A DNA stretch of 59,368 nt, the filler included. It is 6 parts of 6 records of this genome, joined end to end, with 100 filler letters (N's around TTAATTAATTAA, not from the genome) between each part and the next. Parts side by side here need not be neighbours in the genome. Positions count along the whole stretch, not along the records: positions 53,950 to 59,368 come from DRR723986_80234; 5 more parts are not named here. The stretch is one strand, 5' to 3'. Below, piece by piece: positions 1,563 to 59,368 of this stretch (positions are counted from its first letter, which is position 1; every line of letters begins with the position of its first letter). Both the position numbers and the translations under genes were made by a program. The notes beneath the pieces are model-generated. The model made no database searches and was not told the DNA's origin. It saw nothing but the letters and a program-made list of their open reading frames with translations.

Positions 1563-2144
1563 ATGGGGGTTAAAACCGCACGGGAGCCCCGCGCACTCGA
1601 AACATTGACGGACGAAGTCGCCGTTGATGTTCTCGAGATTGCCGGAACGATTAAGTGGTTCGACGTCGGGAAAGGATATGGCTTCATCGTCCCGGACGAC
1701 GGCGACGGTGATATCCTTTTGCACGTCACCTGCCTCAGGCGAGACGGGTACCAGACTGCTTACGAAGGCGCGCGGGTTGTTTGCGAAGTACTCGACCGGC
1801 CGCGCGGTCTTCAGGCCTTCCGCATCCTGTCGATGGACGAAAGCACTGCGACCCACCCGTCACAGTTGCCACCGTCGCGCACCCATGTTCAGGTTGTCCC
1901 CGAAAGCGGTTTTGAAAAAGCGACCGTGAAATGGTTCAACCGCGTCAAGGGCTTCGGGTTTCTGACCCAGGGTGAAGGTTCAGAAGACATCTTCATTCAC
2001 ATGGAGACGCTGCGACGCTTCGGCATCACTGAATTGCGTCCCGGCCAGGATGTGCTGGTGCGCTTCGGCGAAGGCCCGAAAGGCCGCATGGCCGCTGAAA
2101 TCCGGCCGGTCGGGACAGGCACCCATATACCTGCCTCTCACTGA
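1563..2144 (+). CDS. Cold-shock protein with two CSD domains
   Basis: Two KWF..KG(Y/F)GF RNP1 motifs; typical alphaproteobacterial tandem CSD gene upstream of DUF192. Confidence 0.93.
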   Translation: MGVKTAREPRALETLTDEVAVDVLEIAGTIKWFDVGKGYGFIVPDDGDGDILLHVTCLRRDGYQTAYEGARVVCEVLDRPRGLQAFRILSMDESTATHPSQLPPSRTHVQVVPESGFEKATVKWFNRVKGFGFLTQGEGSEDIFIHMETLRRFGITELRPGQDVLVRFGEGPKGRMAAEIRPVGTGTHIPASH

Positions 2145-2175
2145 CCCCACTTTCCGTCATTCTGCACATTGACTC

Positions 2176-2199
2176 GGCCGGACATGTTCCGGCCTTTTT
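2176..2199 (+). terminator. Intrinsic terminator after the cold-shock gene
   Basis: GGCCGGA-CATGT-TCCGGCC followed by TTTTT. Confidence 0.8.
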
Positions 2200-2313
2200 G
2201 TTTGTCGACCTTCAGGCAATCTTCTTCGGCAGACGGGAAGTGATATTCCGGTCTTGCCTTTGACTGCCAGTTTCCCAAACCGGTTCTGCCGGGCCTTTCA
2301 GGAAGTTTTCAGA

Positions 2314-2799
2314 ATGCGTCCTTTCTTTCTGTGTCTCTCGCTTTTTGCTGCAACACTCTGGATTTCGCTCGCGGGTTCGCCTGGACAGGCGCTGGCACAG
2401 GACCCGCAGTTGAACCTGCCGGTGGAAGATCTTCTCATTCGGTCTGGAGACAAGGAACACCAGTTCAAGGCGGAGGTTGCGGCAACGGACCGGCAACGGT
2501 CGATGGGATTGATGTTCCGCAAAGAGATGCCGGCGGAACGCGGCATGCTGTTCCTCTTCGAAGGGGAGGGCGACCGTTACTTCTGGATGAAAAATACACC
2601 CCTGCCGCTCGACATCATTTTCATTGACGCGAAGGGGGCCATCGTCAGCATCGCCGACAACACCACGCCTTTTTCCGAAGACGTCATTCCCTCGCTTGGT
2701 CCGGCGAAGTACGTGTTCGAAATAAACGCCGGTCTGGCGGAAAAACTCGAAATTTCGGCCGGAGACAAGGTCAGCAGCCCGTCCATGGGGCTGGAATGA
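2314..2799 (+). CDS. DUF192 family exported protein
   Basis: GLMFR, GMLF, FWMKNTPLPLDIIFI and YVFEINAG motifs; signal peptide after ATG 2314. Confidence 0.9.
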   Translation: MRPFFLCLSLFAATLWISLAGSPGQALAQDPQLNLPVEDLLIRSGDKEHQFKAEVAATDRQRSMGLMFRKEMPAERGMLFLFEGEGDRYFWMKNTPLPLDIIFIDAKGAIVSIADNTTPFSEDVIPSLGPAKYVFEINAGLAEKLEISAGDKVSSPSMGLE

Positions 2800-3041
2800 A
2801 ACCGAATGGCACTTATTCCAGCGTGCCCGAAAATTCTAAAAACATGAATTATAAGCGTTGACCGATGAGGCGGCCAGACTGGCGACCGACAGGACCAGCA
2901 GGACGCCTGTTGGTGCAGACACGGCGGTGATTACCGCGGAAGCAGAAAGCTCCATCACCGCACCGATGCACTGAGCCTTCTTTTTGTCACCGCCCGCAAT
3001 GGATACGATAATACCCGTCTTTTTGACGACTGTGGCACTGA

Positions 3042-3293
3042 CTGCAACCAACGCGGCTCCGGGCGATCTCGGCCGGCGCACGGATCGGCGCGGCGGCTGC
3101 GCAGTCACAGACAGATCCGCCGTTGCCGGAAGACTGCAGGAAGCGACAACGATCGGGCGTTGTTCTCGGCGATCCGTTTGATGTCGCGCTCATAAAAACA
3201 GACGAGACCCTCGGCCGGGCAATTAGCCGGGTTGCGCGCTGCGCAAGCTGGCACGACACCTATCGAAACTGCTTGGGCGGGGCTGTGGAATGA
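3042..3293 (+). pseudogene. Phage Rz1/o-spanin-like remnant lacking an intact start and lipobox
   Basis: Frame reads ...RIGAAAAQSQTDPPLPEDCRKRQRSGVVLGDPFDVALIKTDETLGRAISRVARCASWHDTYRNCLGGAVE*; its TGA overlaps the next ATG (ATGA); resembles small lysis lipoproteins of rhizobial prophages. Confidence 0.5.
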
Positions 3294-53949: not shown

Positions 53950-54379
53950 GACAATAGAAATCTAGCGAATAATTTGCCATCGCTTGGCCAGCGCACAAAA
54001 AAGCCTGGCTTTTAGTTATGGTTTAAAATTTCGCAAACGATAAAAATGTATTGGTCAAAAAATTTTAGACGATTCTCTCGTGGATTGCCACAAGAGCATA
54101 AAATTACACGTAACGATAATTTCTATGCACATATTATATGCAGAAATTCTAATAAACATTCTTTAAGGTCTATATCTTTTACCTTGATGCAAAAGAAACA
54201 AAAAATCAAGGCTGCATAACATTTTGGAAACAATTAACGCTTCCTTCCACAATATTTTAGGAAACATTGTAACTATTAAGATTGTGCTTAATATTATGTA
54301 AAATAGAATTGTTTAGAATGCTTTTTAGTAAACCCCTAAAATATGCTCGTTCCACTCACCTATTGTTTGAGCCAAAATT

Positions 54380-54796
54380 TTATGAGGCCGAAAAAACTTC
54401 ATTTATATCTTTAAAGCTCTTAAATTCTAACATATATCCATTCGGATCTTTCACAAAGAAAGATAGATGTTCACCAGATTTGTTCTTTAAAAATGTGGCT
54501 TGAGTTGTTAAATCTAAATTTGCACTATTCAATCTGGTATACATTTCACCCCAAGCATTTATGTCTAATATGATGCCGAAATGGAAAGAAGATAAAAGTT
54601 TGCCTTCAAAAGTATACTTAGGATTATTAAAATCAAATTTACCCACTTGTGTAAATGTGACTTGATGTCCAAAAAGGTTGATATCTACCCAATTATTCGC
54701 ATACCTTCCTAGATTAGCTCCAATAGTATCTATATAAAACTTTTTAGTTCCTACTATACTATTGCATGGAAGCGATAAGTGAAATGATGTTTCCAT
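54380..54796 (-). CDS. VOC/glyoxalase-family protein
   Basis: FHLSLP, WVDINLFGHQ, HFGI and FFVKDPNGYMLEFKSF motifs. Confidence 0.88.
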   Translation of the reverse strand: METSFHLSLPCNSIVGTKKFYIDTIGANLGRYANNWVDINLFGHQVTFTQVGKFDFNNPKYTFEGKLLSSFHFGIILDINAWGEMYTRLNSANLDLTTQATFLKNKSGEHLSFFVKDPNGYMLEFKSFKDINEVFSAS

Positions 54797-54807
54797 AGTT
54801 TAGTTCA

Positions 54808-55068
54808 TTAAATAAGTTTTAAATCAATAATTCTAAATGTTAAAAAGTCGTCGTCATCTAAATCATTAATAATTTCTTTATAGGTTACCTTGAATGCTAC
54901 ACCAATATATTCTTCACTTTTAAGGTCAAACACTTCCAAGACTGAGGTTTTTATTTCCTCAAAAACTATAATCTCGTCAAATGAAAATCGAAAAGTAAAA
55001 AATCCATCAAAGTGCTTAACAAATACACCTTCTTCAGTTCTGATTTCTTCTGTATTATAATAATTCAT
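54808..55068 (-). CDS. Small acidic hypothetical protein
   Basis: 86-aa ORF at operon-like spacing. Confidence 0.65.
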   Translation of the reverse strand: MNYYNTEEIRTEEGVFVKHFDGFFTFRFSFDEIIVFEEIKTSVLEVFDLKSEEYIGVAFKVTYKEIINDLDDDDFLTFRIIDLKLI

Positions 55069-55086
55069 AGTAGTATCGTTTTTAAA

Positions 55087-55398
55087 TTAAGCTTCCTCAA
55101 AATCATCGTTGGTTAAACTATCGAAATCAATATCTTCATTATCTTCATTATCTTCTTTATCATCATTATATGAATCTTCATTGTCTTCGAAATCTTCCAT
55201 AGCTTGTATTAAACGTTTTCCAACTTTTACAAGATATATGGTATCCTCCGTTCTAATCTCTACAGCTTCAATGTGTTCGTTCTGAGCATTCCTAAAGGCA
55301 ATGATGTCTTTATCATCATAACCCTCAGGGAATTTTTCTACTAATAGGTTTAATATTTCAGCATTAAGTTTTTGGTAGTCTACAATTTTACGTATCAT
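55087..55398 (-). CDS. Conserved Bacteroidota hypothetical protein with acidic tail
   Basis: IVDYQKL..LLVEKFPEGYD..AVEIRTEDTIYLVKV core followed by a D/E-rich tail. Confidence 0.8.
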   Translation of the reverse strand: MIRKIVDYQKLNAEILNLLVEKFPEGYDDKDIIAFRNAQNEHIEAVEIRTEDTIYLVKVGKRLIQAMEDFEDNEDSYNDDKEDNEDNEDIDFDSLTNDDFEEA

Positions 55399-55409
55399 TT
55401 TATTTGTTG

Positions 55410-56387
55410 TTACATGTCTAATAAATAGGCGAAAATTAAAGGTGCTACTATGGTAGCATCACTTTCTATTATGAACTTGGGTGTATTAATATCTAACTTT
55501 CCCCAAGTGATTTTTTCATTTGGAACAGCTCCCGAATAAGAGCCATAACTTGTTGTGGAATCACTAATCTGGCAGAAGTAACTCCAAAAAGGTGTGTCGG
55601 TACGCTCCATATCTTGATATAACATCGGTACAACACATATAGGAAAATCGCCAGCTATTCCACCGCCAATTTGAAAAAAACCAATTCCTTTTCTTGAATT
55701 ATCAGTATACCAATCAGCAAGAAAAGTCATATACTCAATGCCTGACTTTATGGTACTTGCCTTTAAGTCGCCTTTAAGCACATAACTGGCAAATATGTTT
55801 CCCATGGTACTATCCTCCCAACCTGGGCAAACGATAGGTAAATTCTTTTCAGCGGCTGCATACATCCAAGAGTCTTTTAAGTCTATCTCATAGTATTCTT
55901 CCAATACACCTGATAACAGAAGTTTATACATGCACTCATGTGGTAAATAACGTTCAGCTTTTTCATCAGCATCTTTCCAAATGGCATAAATGTGTTTTTG
56001 AAGTCTTCTAAACGCTTCTTCTTCTGGAATACAAGTATCTGTAACGCGATTTAATCCTTGTTCTAAAAGAGCCCATTCTTCTTGCGGTGTTAAATCTCTA
56101 TAATTTGGTACTCGCTTATAGTGCGAATGCGCAACTAAATTCATAATATCTTCTTCGAGGTTAGCACCAGTGCAAGAAATAATATGCACTTTGTCTTGAC
56201 GAATCATTTCTGCAAAAATTTTCCCCAATTCAGCAGTGCTCATAGCACCTGCCAAAGAGACCAACATTTTCGATCCATTATGTAATTGAAACTCATACGC
56301 TTTTGCAGCGTCTACTACAGTAGCTGCGTTAAAATGTAAGTAATACTCTTCTATAAAGTTCGAAATAGCTCCTTTAGTATTCAACAT
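55410..56387 (-). CDS. Deoxyhypusine-synthase-like protein (probable homospermidine synthase)
   Basis: AGAMST, TGANLEED, IGGGIAGD, SYSGAVPNEKITWGK (catalytic Lys) and SDATIVAPL motifs. Confidence 0.9.
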   Translation of the reverse strand: MLNTKGAISNFIEEYYLHFNAATVVDAAKAYEFQLHNGSKMLVSLAGAMSTAELGKIFAEMIRQDKVHIISCTGANLEEDIMNLVAHSHYKRVPNYRDLTPQEEWALLEQGLNRVTDTCIPEEEAFRRLQKHIYAIWKDADEKAERYLPHECMYKLLLSGVLEEYYEIDLKDSWMYAAAEKNLPIVCPGWEDSTMGNIFASYVLKGDLKASTIKSGIEYMTFLADWYTDNSRKGIGFFQIGGGIAGDFPICVVPMLYQDMERTDTPFWSYFCQISDSTTSYGSYSGAVPNEKITWGKLDINTPKFIIESDATIVAPLIFAYLLDM

Positions 56388-57315
56388 CTTCATCAAATTT
56401 TAAATAGTTTCCTAAACGGTTTGATTCTTCATAGGTATTCTCATAGTTCTCTTCTTCTTCTTCTTCATTTTGAAACTTATAGCTTAACATCTTGTAATAC
56501 AATTTAGCTGCTAAAAAGTCAGATGATTTTTCATTTTCATTAGGACATAATTCTACAATATCAAAACCAACCACGTTTTTCTCATTAAAAACTTCTTTTA
56601 AAAACTCTAAAGTTTCATACCAAAACAAACCTCCAGGTTCAGGTGTTCCTGTGCTAGGCAATATGGAAGGGTCAAAAGCATCTAAATCAAATGTGATGAA
56701 TACATTGTCTGTCATTTGGTCAATTGCCGAATCCATCCATGAATCATCTGTCCCCATTTCATGAGCAAAATAAGTCTTGTCAAAATCCATTACAGATTTT
56801 TCCTGTACATCCATAGAACGAATGCCAACTTGAATTAAGTTGGTGTTCTGACTTGCTTCATAAACCGCACAGGCATGATTACAAGTACTTCCTTCATAAG
56901 ACTTCCTTAAATCAGCATGCGCATCTATATGCAAAACAGTTAGGTTCTGAAACACCTCATTAAAAGCTCTTATAATTCCTATTGAAACTGAATGTTCCCC
57001 TCCAATAATGGTAACAAACTTATTCTTCTTTATATATTTTTTAGTTTCTTGGTGCACGGCATCTACCATAGCTTCAGGCGTGGCATTTAAGGTAACTGGT
57101 TCGGTAAGGTAAATTCCATTTTTATAGACCTCTGAATCTGTTTCTATATCATAGAGTTCCATATTTTCTGAAGCTTCCATAAAAGCTTTAGGACCTTTAT
57201 CAGCACCTTTTTGCCAAGTACTGGTACCATCATAAGGCACAGGTATTAAAACAATCTTTGATGTTTCTAATTTTGCATATTCGTCTGGTATCCCAGCATA
57301 GGTTTTAGTTTTCAT
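56374..57315 (-). CDS. speB: Agmatinase
   Basis: GGEHS, DAHAD, DLDAFDP and GTPEPGG motifs. Confidence 0.95.
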   Translation of the reverse strand: MKTKTYAGIPDEYAKLETSKIVLIPVPYDGTSTWQKGADKGPKAFMEASENMELYDIETDSEVYKNGIYLTEPVTLNATPEAMVDAVHQETKKYIKKNKFVTIIGGEHSVSIGIIRAFNEVFQNLTVLHIDAHADLRKSYEGSTCNHACAVYEASQNTNLIQVGIRSMDVQEKSVMDFDKTYFAHEMGTDDSWMDSAIDQMTDNVFITFDLDAFDPSILPSTGTPEPGGLFWYETLEFLKEVFNEKNVVGFDIVELCPNENEKSSDFLAAKLYYKMLSYKFQNEEEEEENYENTYEESNRLGNYLKFDEDVEY

Positions 57316-57316
57316 T

Positions 57317-58777
57317 TTATGAGTTAGCTAATTGCAATTCATTTTTAGAATTTGATTGCATTGTTGTTTTTATTTTTGAGTTTTTACCATAACCTAGTAT
57401 CTGCATTAGGTCTTCACTTTTTTGTTGTTCTCTGAATAGTTCTGTTGTTGTATTTCCTTTACTATCTTTATTAATTAAGATATGTTTTGGTGCTGGAATC
57501 AAACAATGTTGTAAACCTCCATAACCTCCAATGGTCTCTTGGTATGCACCAGTATTAAAAAAACCTATATATAGTGGTTTATCTTTATGGTATTTTGGTA
57601 AATAAATGGCATTGATGTGCTGTTCACTATTATAATAATCGTCACTATCACAAGTTAAGCCGCCTAATAGCACTCGCTCGTAGCTATCATTCCATCTATT
57701 GATGGGAAGCATCACAAACCGTTTATTAATTGCCCAAGTATCAGGAAGTGTTGTAATAAAAGATGAGTTTATCATATTCCATTTCTCTCTGTCATTTTGT
57801 TGTTTTTGATAGAGCACTTCATAAATTGCACCACCACTTTCTCCAACTGTAAAGCTTCCAAATTCCGTGAAGATATTTGGTACGGCTACAGCTTCTTCTT
57901 CACATGCGAGTTTAATTTGATTTACGATTTCATCAATTATGTACTGATAATCAAAATCAAAAGCCAATGAATTTTTTATAGGAAAACCACCACCAATATT
58001 CAAACTATTTAATGAAGGGCAAATCTTTTTTAAGCCTGTATATACTTTTAAACATTTTAGCAATTCGTTCCAATAATAAGCATTATCTCTAATCCCAGTA
58101 TTGATGAAAAAATGCAACATTTTAAGTTCAACTTTAGGATTATCTTTAATCTGTTTATTGTAAAAAGGAACTATGTTTTTGTAGCCGATACCTAATCTTG
58201 ACGTATAAAATTCAAACTTTGGTTCTTCTTCTGAGGCAATGCGAATACCAATATTAAATTTCCTTTCTATTTCGCTGGATAGTAAATCTATTTCCTCATA
58301 ATTGTCAATTATAGGAATGCAATTTCTGTGACCATTATTAATAAGTCTTGCAATGTTAGAAATGTATTGTTCTCTTTTAAAGCCATTACATATAATGAAT
58401 GTGTCATGGTTTATTTTGCCTTCTATCTTAAGGTCTTCTACAATATCAATATCGAAAGCCGATGATGTTTCAATATGAATATCATTTTTTAAAGCTTCAT
58501 CCAAAACATGTTTGAAATGCGAACTTTTAGTACAATAGCAGTATTTATAAGCACCACTGTATTTGTGATTCTTAATAGCATTGTTGAACCATTCTTTTGC
58601 TCTAATAATATTATTAGAAATCTGCGGTAAATAGGTAAATTTTAATGGTGTTCTATAGGTTTCTACTAATTCGTTTAAGTCTAAACCATGAAACAAGAGT
58701 TTGTCTTCCTCTAAATCAAATTCAGATTGAGGAAAATCGAATGTTTGATTGATTAAATCAACATACTTAGTGTTCAT
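57317..58777 (-). CDS. speA: Arginine decarboxylase (alanine-racemase fold)
   Basis: YCTKSSH PLP lysine, NIGGG, TEFG, LPDTW, TCDSD and GAYQ motifs. Confidence 0.92.
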   Translation of the reverse strand: MNTKYVDLINQTFDFPQSEFDLEEDKLLFHGLDLNELVETYRTPLKFTYLPQISNNIIRAKEWFNNAIKNHKYSGAYKYCYCTKSSHFKHVLDEALKNDIHIETSSAFDIDIVEDLKIEGKINHDTFIICNGFKREQYISNIARLINNGHRNCIPIIDNYEEIDLLSSEIERKFNIGIRIASEEEPKFEFYTSRLGIGYKNIVPFYNKQIKDNPKVELKMLHFFINTGIRDNAYYWNELLKCLKVYTGLKKICPSLNSLNIGGGFPIKNSLAFDFDYQYIIDEIVNQIKLACEEEAVAVPNIFTEFGSFTVGESGGAIYEVLYQKQQNDREKWNMINSSFITTLPDTWAINKRFVMLPINRWNDSYERVLLGGLTCDSDDYYNSEQHINAIYLPKYHKDKPLYIGFFNTGAYQETIGGYGGLQHCLIPAPKHILINKDSKGNTTTELFREQQKSEDLMQILGYGKNSKIKTTMQSNSKNELQLANS

Positions 58778-58778
58778 C

Positions 58779-59307
58779 TTATGATTTTTAAAAGTTGTTA
58801 AATAGAAGGCATAGCAAAGCTACCTTCACTAAAAGGCATTAATAACTTTTATCAAATCATAATCTGATATTGCGTTTTGGGGACAAAACACAATCTTTTG
58901 TATTGCGTAGTAAATATTTTAACTCCGGAAGTTAGCTCTAAATTTCGGGTACTTACACCATAAGCTGCTTTTGAATTTGACTTCCTAATTTTCAAAAGCC
59001 CGAACGTAAAAACCGTTTTCACTTTGTTCAGCTAAAAGCTCCTATGATAAAAGCTTTAGAAAACGAAGTTAACTCAAAATTTTAATATTTCAATTTTTTT
59101 TCATTCCACACACATTTTCTGCCACTTCTCTACCCTTACAGAAAAAGAGTGTTCCATTAACATCGCAGAATGAACTTTAGGAATAAAATTTTTTGAAGAA
59201 ACTGAAGTTATAACTTTCGCTTTTATCCAAAGCTCAAGTTACATAACGCAAGTATATTATAGGACAATTGCTGTTATTTGGTTTTCGATGTGAGTGTACC
59301 AATTGTC
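58779..59307 (-). ncRNA. Candidate large structured cis-regulatory leader of speA
   Basis: About ten nested inverted repeats, minus-strand G-U pairs, a tandem GA loop, a GNRA loop and no ORF; see findings. Confidence 0.6.
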
Positions 59308-59368
59308 AGCTATAATGTTATTATGTAAAATATCCCAGAATAATCCGTTTCCATAAGATTGTTCAGTA

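Follow-up and report, generated by a model that had tools for sequence, protein, structure and literature searches.

The question raised by this locus is what lies in the long spacer in front of a speA-like gene for an arginine decarboxylase. The gene is on the minus strand of a DNA stretch of 59,368 nucleotides (nt), which was analysed as a whole and is called the window below; positions 53,950 to 59,368 of it come from the record DRR723986_80234. The upstream open reading frame on the same strand ends at 59257, which leaves a spacer of ~480 nt before speA. An earlier reading made from the letters alone (the sequence-only reading) had described 58779 to 59307 as a non-coding, multi-junction leader of ~530 nt, possibly riboswitch-like or a ribozyme-sized RNA. 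We find that a conserved, structured, cis-acting RNA is indeed present on the minus strand before speA, and that its outline has to be redrawn: a pseudoknot of 116 nt is joined to a translated open reading frame of the leader, referred to here as the upstream open reading frame (uORF). Only a handful of bacterial systems are understood as to how polyamine synthesis is controlled, for example SpeFL in enterobacteria and the SAM-I-derived spermidine riboswitch. The pseudoknotted RNA and the mini-gene that overlaps it, standing before the speA operon, look like an undescribed switch of polyamine synthesis in marine Flavobacteriaceae.

The conserved pseudoknot before speA

A blastn search with the window leader aligned 57 relatives over ~115 nt only, corresponding to 58926-59039 of the window, and this core lies ~140-160 nt before the speA ATG. 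Its identity is 75-90% across genera whose speA proteins share 76-86%. Longer leader matches are limited to the five or six closest relatives, with only L001 aligning upstream to ~59269. The conservation of the core alone, together with the presence of a 56-codon uORF, means that the leader is neither 530 nt long nor wholly non-coding. The motif measures 116 nt, and the uORF, 55-57 codons long in nearly all copies, runs from motif position 16 through the rest of the RNA and ~70 nt beyond it.

A 58-sequence alignment (A1) supports five helices (Table 1). In this alignment 93.0% of the cells are paired and 16 of the 30 pairs show two-sided changes; none of 500 shuffles attained the observed values, and sliding the partners by 1-3 columns left only 28-53% paired. 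A second set (A3), made of the 55 matches of the covariance model R1 in a family-wide genome sample, is 91.1% paired, with two-sided changes in 26 of the 30 pairs. The covariation is strong. P1 is 93.4% paired in A1, and all four of its pairs show two-sided changes in A3. P2 is 99.3% and P2a 92.4% paired in A1, where two-sided changes affect 2/5 and 7/9 of their pairs, respectively; for P3 they affect 5/6 pairs in A1 and 6/6 in A3. The pseudoknot helix is recovered by RNAalifold alone and is 98.5% paired in A1, with G-C to A-U swaps in 8 cells. It is also 95.8% paired in A3, although R1 was built without the pseudoknot. A single 3' tail, AGCU-A-ACUUCC, closes both P1 and the pseudoknot. The covarying fold is compact, and the motif has invariant unpaired bases. 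The window itself scores 125.5 bits in cmsearch with R1, and the matches of this model are always on the speA strand.

The position of the motif is equally constant. A search with the speA protein gave 80 Flavobacteriaceae loci, nearly all with a long non-coding gap before speA, and the motif was found in 64 of the 78 loci with enough upstream sequence. Culturable organisms are among those retrieved, such as Wocania ichthyoenteri, Algibacter mikhailovii, Olleya namhaensis, Bizionia echini and Kordia. Flavobacteriaceae is also the family to which the closest complete genome belongs; of 151 genomes sampled from it, 73 carry the motif, usually as a single copy. Outside this family it was not found in the order and class samples searched: two of the 151 genomes in the order sample carry it, namely the centre genome G001 and G023 (the latter also in the family sample), and one of the 151 in the class sample, which is the query genome itself. 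Of the family-sample matches, 52/55 stand before speA at 126-236 nt, with a gap between motif end and ATG of mostly 134-160 nt. The three exceptions, and extra copies in one genus, precede other genes.

All complementarities listed in the sequence-only reading can be read directly in the window; what separates them is conservation. The nested stems 58999-59004/58944-49 and 58991-99/58967-75 are the conserved helices P2 and P2a. The strands 59055-60/58937-42 are complementary in the window, but across species the conserved partner of the 3' strand is 59030-59033, giving P1. The hairpin at 59035-59057 exists as a clade-specific 5' hairpin just before the motif. It is kept in the five relatives with whole upstream sequence (L017, L001, L002, L004 and L019), in L019 by a G-C to A-U change on both sides; L009, whose upstream sequence is cut by a contig end, was left out of this comparison. 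Upstream of ~59060 the stems are present but unconserved. The 8-bp pair 59300-07/59263-70 is perfect but falls within the last (3') part of the upstream ORF. The helices 59236-41/59211-16 and 59229-33/59219-23, joined by tandem GA/GA, form a real hairpin, yet one located 16 nt past the stop of that ORF. The GNRA-capped hairpin is complementary in sequence, but blastn shows no conservation of it. The long-range 7-bp complement 59245-51/58870-76 joins a 5' strand that precedes the likely promoter to a 3' strand within uORF codons, and is not conserved either. The multi-junction RNA of ~530 nt is thus replaced by the pseudoknot, and we found no evidence for a ribozyme. It is noted that the GA/GA hairpin (59211-59241, minus strand) stands where a terminator for the upstream ORF would be expected; this hairpin also gave a chance-level 15-nt Rfam row, UnaL2, with an E value of 6.5.

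No match to any Rfam 15 family was obtained when 57500-59368 was run through cmscan with permissive filters to E = 10. Six weak rows were returned, four of them within or overlapping the spacer, with FsrA at the top (23.9 bits against a gathering score of 80). The only row overlapping the motif was Flavivirus-5UTR at 15.9 bits. The weak FsrA, snoRNA, UnaL2 and Flavivirus-5UTR rows were set aside as chance. A crude all-against-all scan of column pairs was too permissive to be used for extra helices in the 5' junction, and neither a hairpin at the start codon nor base pairing between the start region and the 3' junction could be established. A programmed frameshift before the pseudoknot was also considered and rejected, as inspection by eye showed no slippery heptamer and it is the zero frame whose conservation runs to a fixed stop. 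A conserved, covarying fold in what appears to be the 5' leader of genes of one pathway is what a riboswitch would look like, and the pseudoknot is a possible riboswitch-like sensor.

Table 1. Features of the speA leader and operon (window positions; RNA strands are given 5' strand / 3' strand)
Feature	Position	Strand	Remarks
Conserved 116-nt RNA motif (P1, P2, P2a, P3, pseudoknot)	58922..59037	-	alignment A1, covariance model R1
P1	59030-33 / 58934-37	-	5' strand AGCU, 8-11 nt before uORF start codon
P2	59000-04 / 58944-48	-	UUCGG / CCGAA
P2a	58991-99 / 58967-75	-	5' strand GCUUUUGAA, 3' strand UUCAAAAGC
P2 and P2a 5' strands combined	58991..59004	-	UUCGG, GCUUUUGAA
P3 hairpin	58951..58965	-	pairs 58960-65 / 58951-56
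Pseudoknot 5' strand	58980..58985	-	GGAAGU, in P2a loop; also encodes conserved R-K-S
Pseudoknot 3' strand	58927..58932	-	ACUUCC, one base past P1 3' strand; also encodes L-T-S
uORF	58852..59022	-	56 codons; GTG start 59020-59022, TGA stop 58852-58854
uORF C-terminal half, outside RNA motif	58855..58920	-	window peptide ...CFVPKTQYQIMI; peptide-level selection
Spacer, uORF stop to speA ATG	58778..58851	-	74 nt
Spacer arms around hairpin 58805-58827	58839-58851 / 58789-58801	-	minimum free energy fold of window; ends 11 nt before ATG
Clade-specific 5' hairpin (AAAGCU...AGCUUU)	59035..59057	-	just before motif
Possible degenerate -7 promoter box	59064..59071	-	5/6 consensus positions
speA-like PLP (pyridoxal phosphate)-dependent arginine decarboxylase	57317..58777	-	first gene of regulated operon
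Agmatinase	56374-57315	-	
Deoxyhypusine-synthase-like gene	55410-56396	-	
Three small unnamed ORFs	54380-55398	-	after deoxyhypusine-synthase-like gene

The overlapping uORF and its peptide

The sequence-only reading had noted that no ORF of 60 or more residues is present, which is true, but the conserved 56-codon ORF was overlooked by it. We collected 105 distinct homologous copies of this uORF, which are related sequences. Their start codons are TTG (66), ATG (32) and GTG (7), with no other codon used. In 98 of them the length is 55-57 codons, despite a divergence of the sequence past the motif beyond blastn detection. The stop codon is TGA in 90/105, against 30 of 434 long ORFs in the same loci (7%) and 4 of 36 in the window, and this bias holds in all three C-terminal sequence types.

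The two halves of the uORF evolve in different ways. Over the first 33 codons, conservation at position 3 equals that at positions 1-2 and no periodicity is seen; where the base pairs of the RNA covary, the amino acids of this N-terminal half change non-conservatively. Toward the end of the uORF the pattern is that of a protein. Among the 50 sequences with the commonest C-terminus, the codons for S, Q, H, F, P and the first T have zero diversity at positions 1-2, and the second T has 0.08, with a position-3 diversity of 0.27-0.71. Since these C-terminal codons vary almost only at third positions, the uORF must be translated. By codon diversity, the first 33 codons are under RNA constraint and the last ~20 under peptide constraint. 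The proline at position 48 is invariant in a 61-sequence protein alignment (A4), and the last residue is hydrophobic. Peptide-level conservation is centred on the final ~20 residues, whose distance to the stop does not vary, as would be expected of an arrest peptide.

The 56-residue peptide belongs to none of the families in Pfam and NCBIfam at E <= 0.01, DUF2618 and the NCBIfam leader-peptide models included, and a word-index protein search with the window peptide gave no candidate. A HMMER profile search of 1.84 billion proteins returned 67 representatives, which are 26-147 residues long apart from one repeat artefact. The clusters looked up carry either the name 'hypothetical protein' or an automatic label that looks mistaken. 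For example, some copies of 50-55 residues in the databases (P0071-P0078) are automatically named 'predicted component of type VI protein secretion system', for which we see no support here. The artefact, P0020, has 1125 residues and 15 profile matches and was rejected as a relative, being a tandem-repeat translation. Its ~15 tandem repeats match the C-terminal profile through ...GFG-VPTTEP..., probably a translated DNA repeat with a chance resemblance. A classical amino-acid attenuator was rejected as well: the window peptide has three scattered arginines and no run, and the same holds for the 105 homologues.

RNA and peptide modules can separate. In leaders of the Arenibacter type the C-terminal peptide is nearly intact, with RNA scores down to 25-40 bits. 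In the extra copy at L115 the RNA is kept (60.8 bits) with a stop inside the motif in the motif's frame, as seen by eye, and a start-codon pattern search found no uORF start there. Other extra copies have ORFs with a different C-terminus, of 52 residues ending in TAA at L084 and at L139 (G454), and of 65 residues ending in TAG at L129.

Transcript, spacer and the proposed mechanism

We searched 103 leaders for -7 boxes with at least five of six matches to a consensus which we take to be that of Bacteroidota promoters. From the end of the box to the motif the distance is 5-8 nt in 53 leaders, 24-29 nt in 11, including the window's clade, and 36-41 nt in 21. With the box near the motif in 53/103, the outer stems are probably outside the transcript. 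In most species the RNA would then start at the motif edge, and the 5' leader of the uORF would be ~15 nt long and contain the 5' strand of P1. In the window's clade the extra hairpin at 59035-59057 lies between promoter and motif. The box of the window is homologous in position to better boxes of L017, L004, L001, L002 and L019, and the transcribed leader is probably ~280 nt long rather than 530.

Four metatranscriptome runs were compared with the region as contigs, in which strand and ends are unreadable. One contig is identical to 58904-59042 and is bounded on each side by adapter letters; this 139-nt insert spans the whole pseudoknot. A second contig, 58760-58948, covers the uORF end, the spacer and the start of speA. 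No contig covers 59056-59235, which proves nothing on the transcript start. These contigs are weak hints of expression.

Between the uORF stop and the speA ATG the gap is 51-98 nt in 92 of the 105 leaders (median ~75). For these 92 leaders, a 5' arm of 28 nt, beginning with the first base of the stop codon, was paired with a 3' arm made of the last 28 nt and extending 6 nt into speA. The mean energy of this arm duplex is -6.27 kcal/mol, compared to -4.77 with shuffled 5' arms and -4.49 (-4.76 to -4.24) with arms swapped between leaders. At least six arm-to-arm pairs are found in the minimum free energy fold of 54/92 leaders, and a hairpin with a T-rich stretch, resembling a terminator, in 22/92 spacers against 3.9 expected. 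Each of the two is consistent with a spacer whose behaviour is decided by a ribosome at the uORF stop.

We lean with moderate confidence towards a leader in two parts, in which the pseudoknot gates initiation at the uORF and a ribosome held at its UGA opens a helix masking the speA start region. The first module, the pseudoknotted RNA, would begin at or near the 5' end of the transcript, with P1 and the pseudoknot enclosing the uORF start codon, usually a weak UUG or GUG. When folded, possibly with stabilization by a ligand or a protein, the pseudoknot would shut this start against ribosome entry; a ribosome translating the uORF would melt it. The conserved C-terminal nascent peptide may then slow release at the UGA, and the paused ribosome would cover the first 12-15 nt past the stop. 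Covering this post-stop arm would free the A-rich region before the AUG, or a weak terminator would be disrupted, and speA would be expressed, which is the presumed sign of control. The phylum is described as working without Shine-Dalgarno pairing and relying on an unstructured start region (PMC6847099). Since the regulon is centred on polyamines, the signal would most simply be a product of the pathway. Polyamines have been reported to modulate weak UUG and GUG starts as well as UGA termination in Escherichia coli. A bolder and rather doubtful version would be a new riboswitch class, with homospermidine, putrescine or agmatine as candidate ligands, written inside the ORF of a metabolite-responsive arrest peptide. 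If true, one leader would integrate an RNA-sensed signal at uORF initiation and a tunnel-sensed signal at UGA termination.

Several observations weigh against the two-part leader as drawn. The -7 box of the window itself is degenerate, and the RNA-library contigs are strandless and may derive from DNA or from duplicates of the polymerase chain reaction. The spacer helix is found in just 54/92 leaders, with a mean z of -0.83 relative to shuffles, and the terminator-like hairpin in just 22/92; as neither is universal, the output mechanism may differ from the one proposed or vary between lineages. The uORF copies are related, and a nominal binomial p-value for the UGA preference overstates their independence. 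The C-terminal peptide falls into at least three sequence types, both RNA and peptide are missing from 14 of the 78 speA loci, and the pseudoknot could bind a protein or be a structural gate only.

A classical riboswitch, with an aptamer for homospermidine, putrescine, agmatine or arginine as the sole sensor and the uORF as a relay or by-product, is unlikely in our view. The fold is compact, conserved and covarying with invariant unpaired bases, its single 3' tail closes P1 and the pseudoknot as in many aptamers, and the associated genes all come from one pathway neighbourhood. The copy at L115, where the RNA is retained and no uORF start was found by the pattern search, fits as well, and a spermidine riboswitch of a different fold is described for other bacteria (PMC10853860). 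However, an RNA-only device explains neither the selection on the C-terminal peptide nor that for UGA, and in the Arenibacter-type leaders it is the RNA that decays and the peptide that stays. Another candidate for the sensor is an arrest peptide of the TnaC or SpeFL kind, in which arginine or a polyamine bound in the ribosomal tunnel blocks release at UGA and the pseudoknot sets the initiation rate of the uORF or stabilizes the 5' end of the mRNA. The last ~20 residues are conserved at a fixed distance from the stop, with a hydrophobic last residue, the invariant proline and a strong UGA preference; TnaC is described to block RF2 at UGA (PMC8450073), and in the SpeFL system a stalled ribosome controls another polyamine gene (10.1101/604074). 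We nevertheless consider this explanation to have a rather small chance of being right. No leader-peptide model of Pfam or NCBIfam matched, the C-termini are of at least three types, and the extra copies differ in C-termini and stop codons. Moreover, the strongest conservation of the leader is at the RNA level, too much for a mere tuner of initiation.

A further reading, which we hold improbable, treats the 56 residues as a small basic protein acting on its own, such as one that inhibits or partners the decarboxylase; the RNA would then regulate the synthesis of this protein rather than speA. Purifying selection does act on the C-terminal part of the ORF, and gene callers predict the ORF in the 67 cluster representatives, named only 'hypothetical protein', but the N-terminal 33 residues change non-conservatively to preserve base pairs (L-L-K to L-W-E opposite N-S to K-P). 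The conserved tail of ~20 residues that remains is short for a folded protein, and the fixed spacing to speA together with the arm pairing indicates a role in cis. As to chance, i.e. an AT-rich spacer that folds without function, either strand of the complete spacer gives a better fold than dinucleotide shuffles do (z of -3.97 for the minus and -3.58 for the plus strand); such similar values mean that fold energy alone cannot pick the strand. Together with the unconserved outer stems this would be compatible with mere composition, against which stand a covarying core conserved at 75-90% and an ORF conserved in length. As an account of the leader, chance is hardly credible: it is refuted for the core and still stands for the stems upstream of ~59060.

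The two-part leader can be compared with regulators already described. In the mgtA leader the small ORF mgtL lies in structured RNA, and the position of the ribosome picks between RNA pairings. In the erm genes the next start site is hidden in a hairpin until a stalled ribosome opens it. Ribosome stalling on ermBL is described as the mechanism of induction (PMC8274638). The present leader differs from both in sequence, signal and phylum, and its ORF is one whose coding sequence itself forms the pseudoknot. SpeFL is alike in being a short ORF before a decarboxylase of polyamine synthesis, with a ribosome held at the ORF end switching the gene on (10.1101/604074). SpeFL has 34 residues, belongs to DUF2618, ends in any of the three stop codons, acts through Rho and senses ornithine in gamma-proteobacteria. 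The present peptide of 55-57 residues, by contrast, prefers UGA and overlaps a pseudoknot; it precedes a speA-like arginine decarboxylase gene in Flavobacteriaceae, not the ornithine decarboxylase gene speF. TnaC shares the conserved C-terminal nascent chain and the blocked release at UGA as described (PMC8450073), stalling at the present uORF being presumed; its own features are a length of 24 residues, the sensing of tryptophan and control of Rho access, and no sequence-family match links it to our peptide. The spermidine riboswitch, a SAM-I variant, is likewise a cis-acting RNA with feedback control before polyamine-synthesis genes. That class keeps the four-stem SAM-I junction and acts by transcription termination (PMC10853860), in contrast to P1/P2-P2a/P3 and a pseudoknot inside a translated ORF; a SAM-I match was not obtained for the present RNA down to E = 10 (cmscan, Rfam 15).

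The literature searched, with subscription journals and supplements outside the search, held no earlier description of the motif and no cis-regulator of polyamine synthesis in Bacteroidota. The element adds a new family to a kind of regulator already known, with RNA-level and peptide-level selection overlapping unusually in one ORF and acting on its adjacent halves. It offers a new RNA family, absent from Rfam, in an abundant marine family. It also offers a candidate for a new arrest peptide, in a phylum whose translation starts without Shine-Dalgarno pairing.

Operon and regulon

The speA-like product matches Pfam PF02784 and the NCBIfam speA models, below their cut-offs. From the enzyme families, the operon of speA, the agmatinase gene speB and the deoxyhypusine-synthase-like gene is predicted to lead to putrescine and homospermidine. 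The three small ORFs that follow encode a 103-residue protein with a very acidic tail, an acidic protein of 86 residues (54808-55068) and a weakly glyoxalase/VOC-like protein of 138 residues.

In the genus with extra copies the motif is present in 16 of 19 genomes, and seven of these carry it two or three times. The genes found behind the three exceptions and the extra copies are homologues of those for the window's 86-residue, acidic 103-residue and VOC-like 138-residue proteins, and in some cases an ATP-grasp-like gene. The element therefore marks a small regulon centred on the operon, and the small ORFs at 54380-55398, having homologues directly behind motif copies of their own, belong to the same regulon. 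Unnamed small proteins and an ATP-grasp-like enzyme are thereby linked to a polyamine regulon.

Several individual loci should be mentioned. The loci lacking the element are L040, L044, L047, L049, L053, L061, L064, L065, L068, L072, L075 and L078-L080; some of them, for example those of Leeuwenhoekiella, have only 113-147 nt before speA, and others 270-830 nt, which may hold a different leader. At L052 (2-1632, minus strand), and also at L138, L139, L141 and L142, the second motif copy of one genus precedes a 100-residue protein with a signal-peptide-like N-terminus, homologous to the window's 86-residue ORF. It is followed by an ATP-grasp-like protein of >409 residues with faint similarity to the RimK family (E 0.007). 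At L129 (G086, 1746-3162) two motif copies stand in tandem on one strand, the first before a VOC-like gene and a 144-residue ORF and the second, a weak one of 43 bits, before speA. Behind the motif copy of L143 (G467) only the first 49 residues of speA match (62% identity), which looks like a remnant of the gene, and homologues of the acidic 103-residue and VOC-like proteins come after it.

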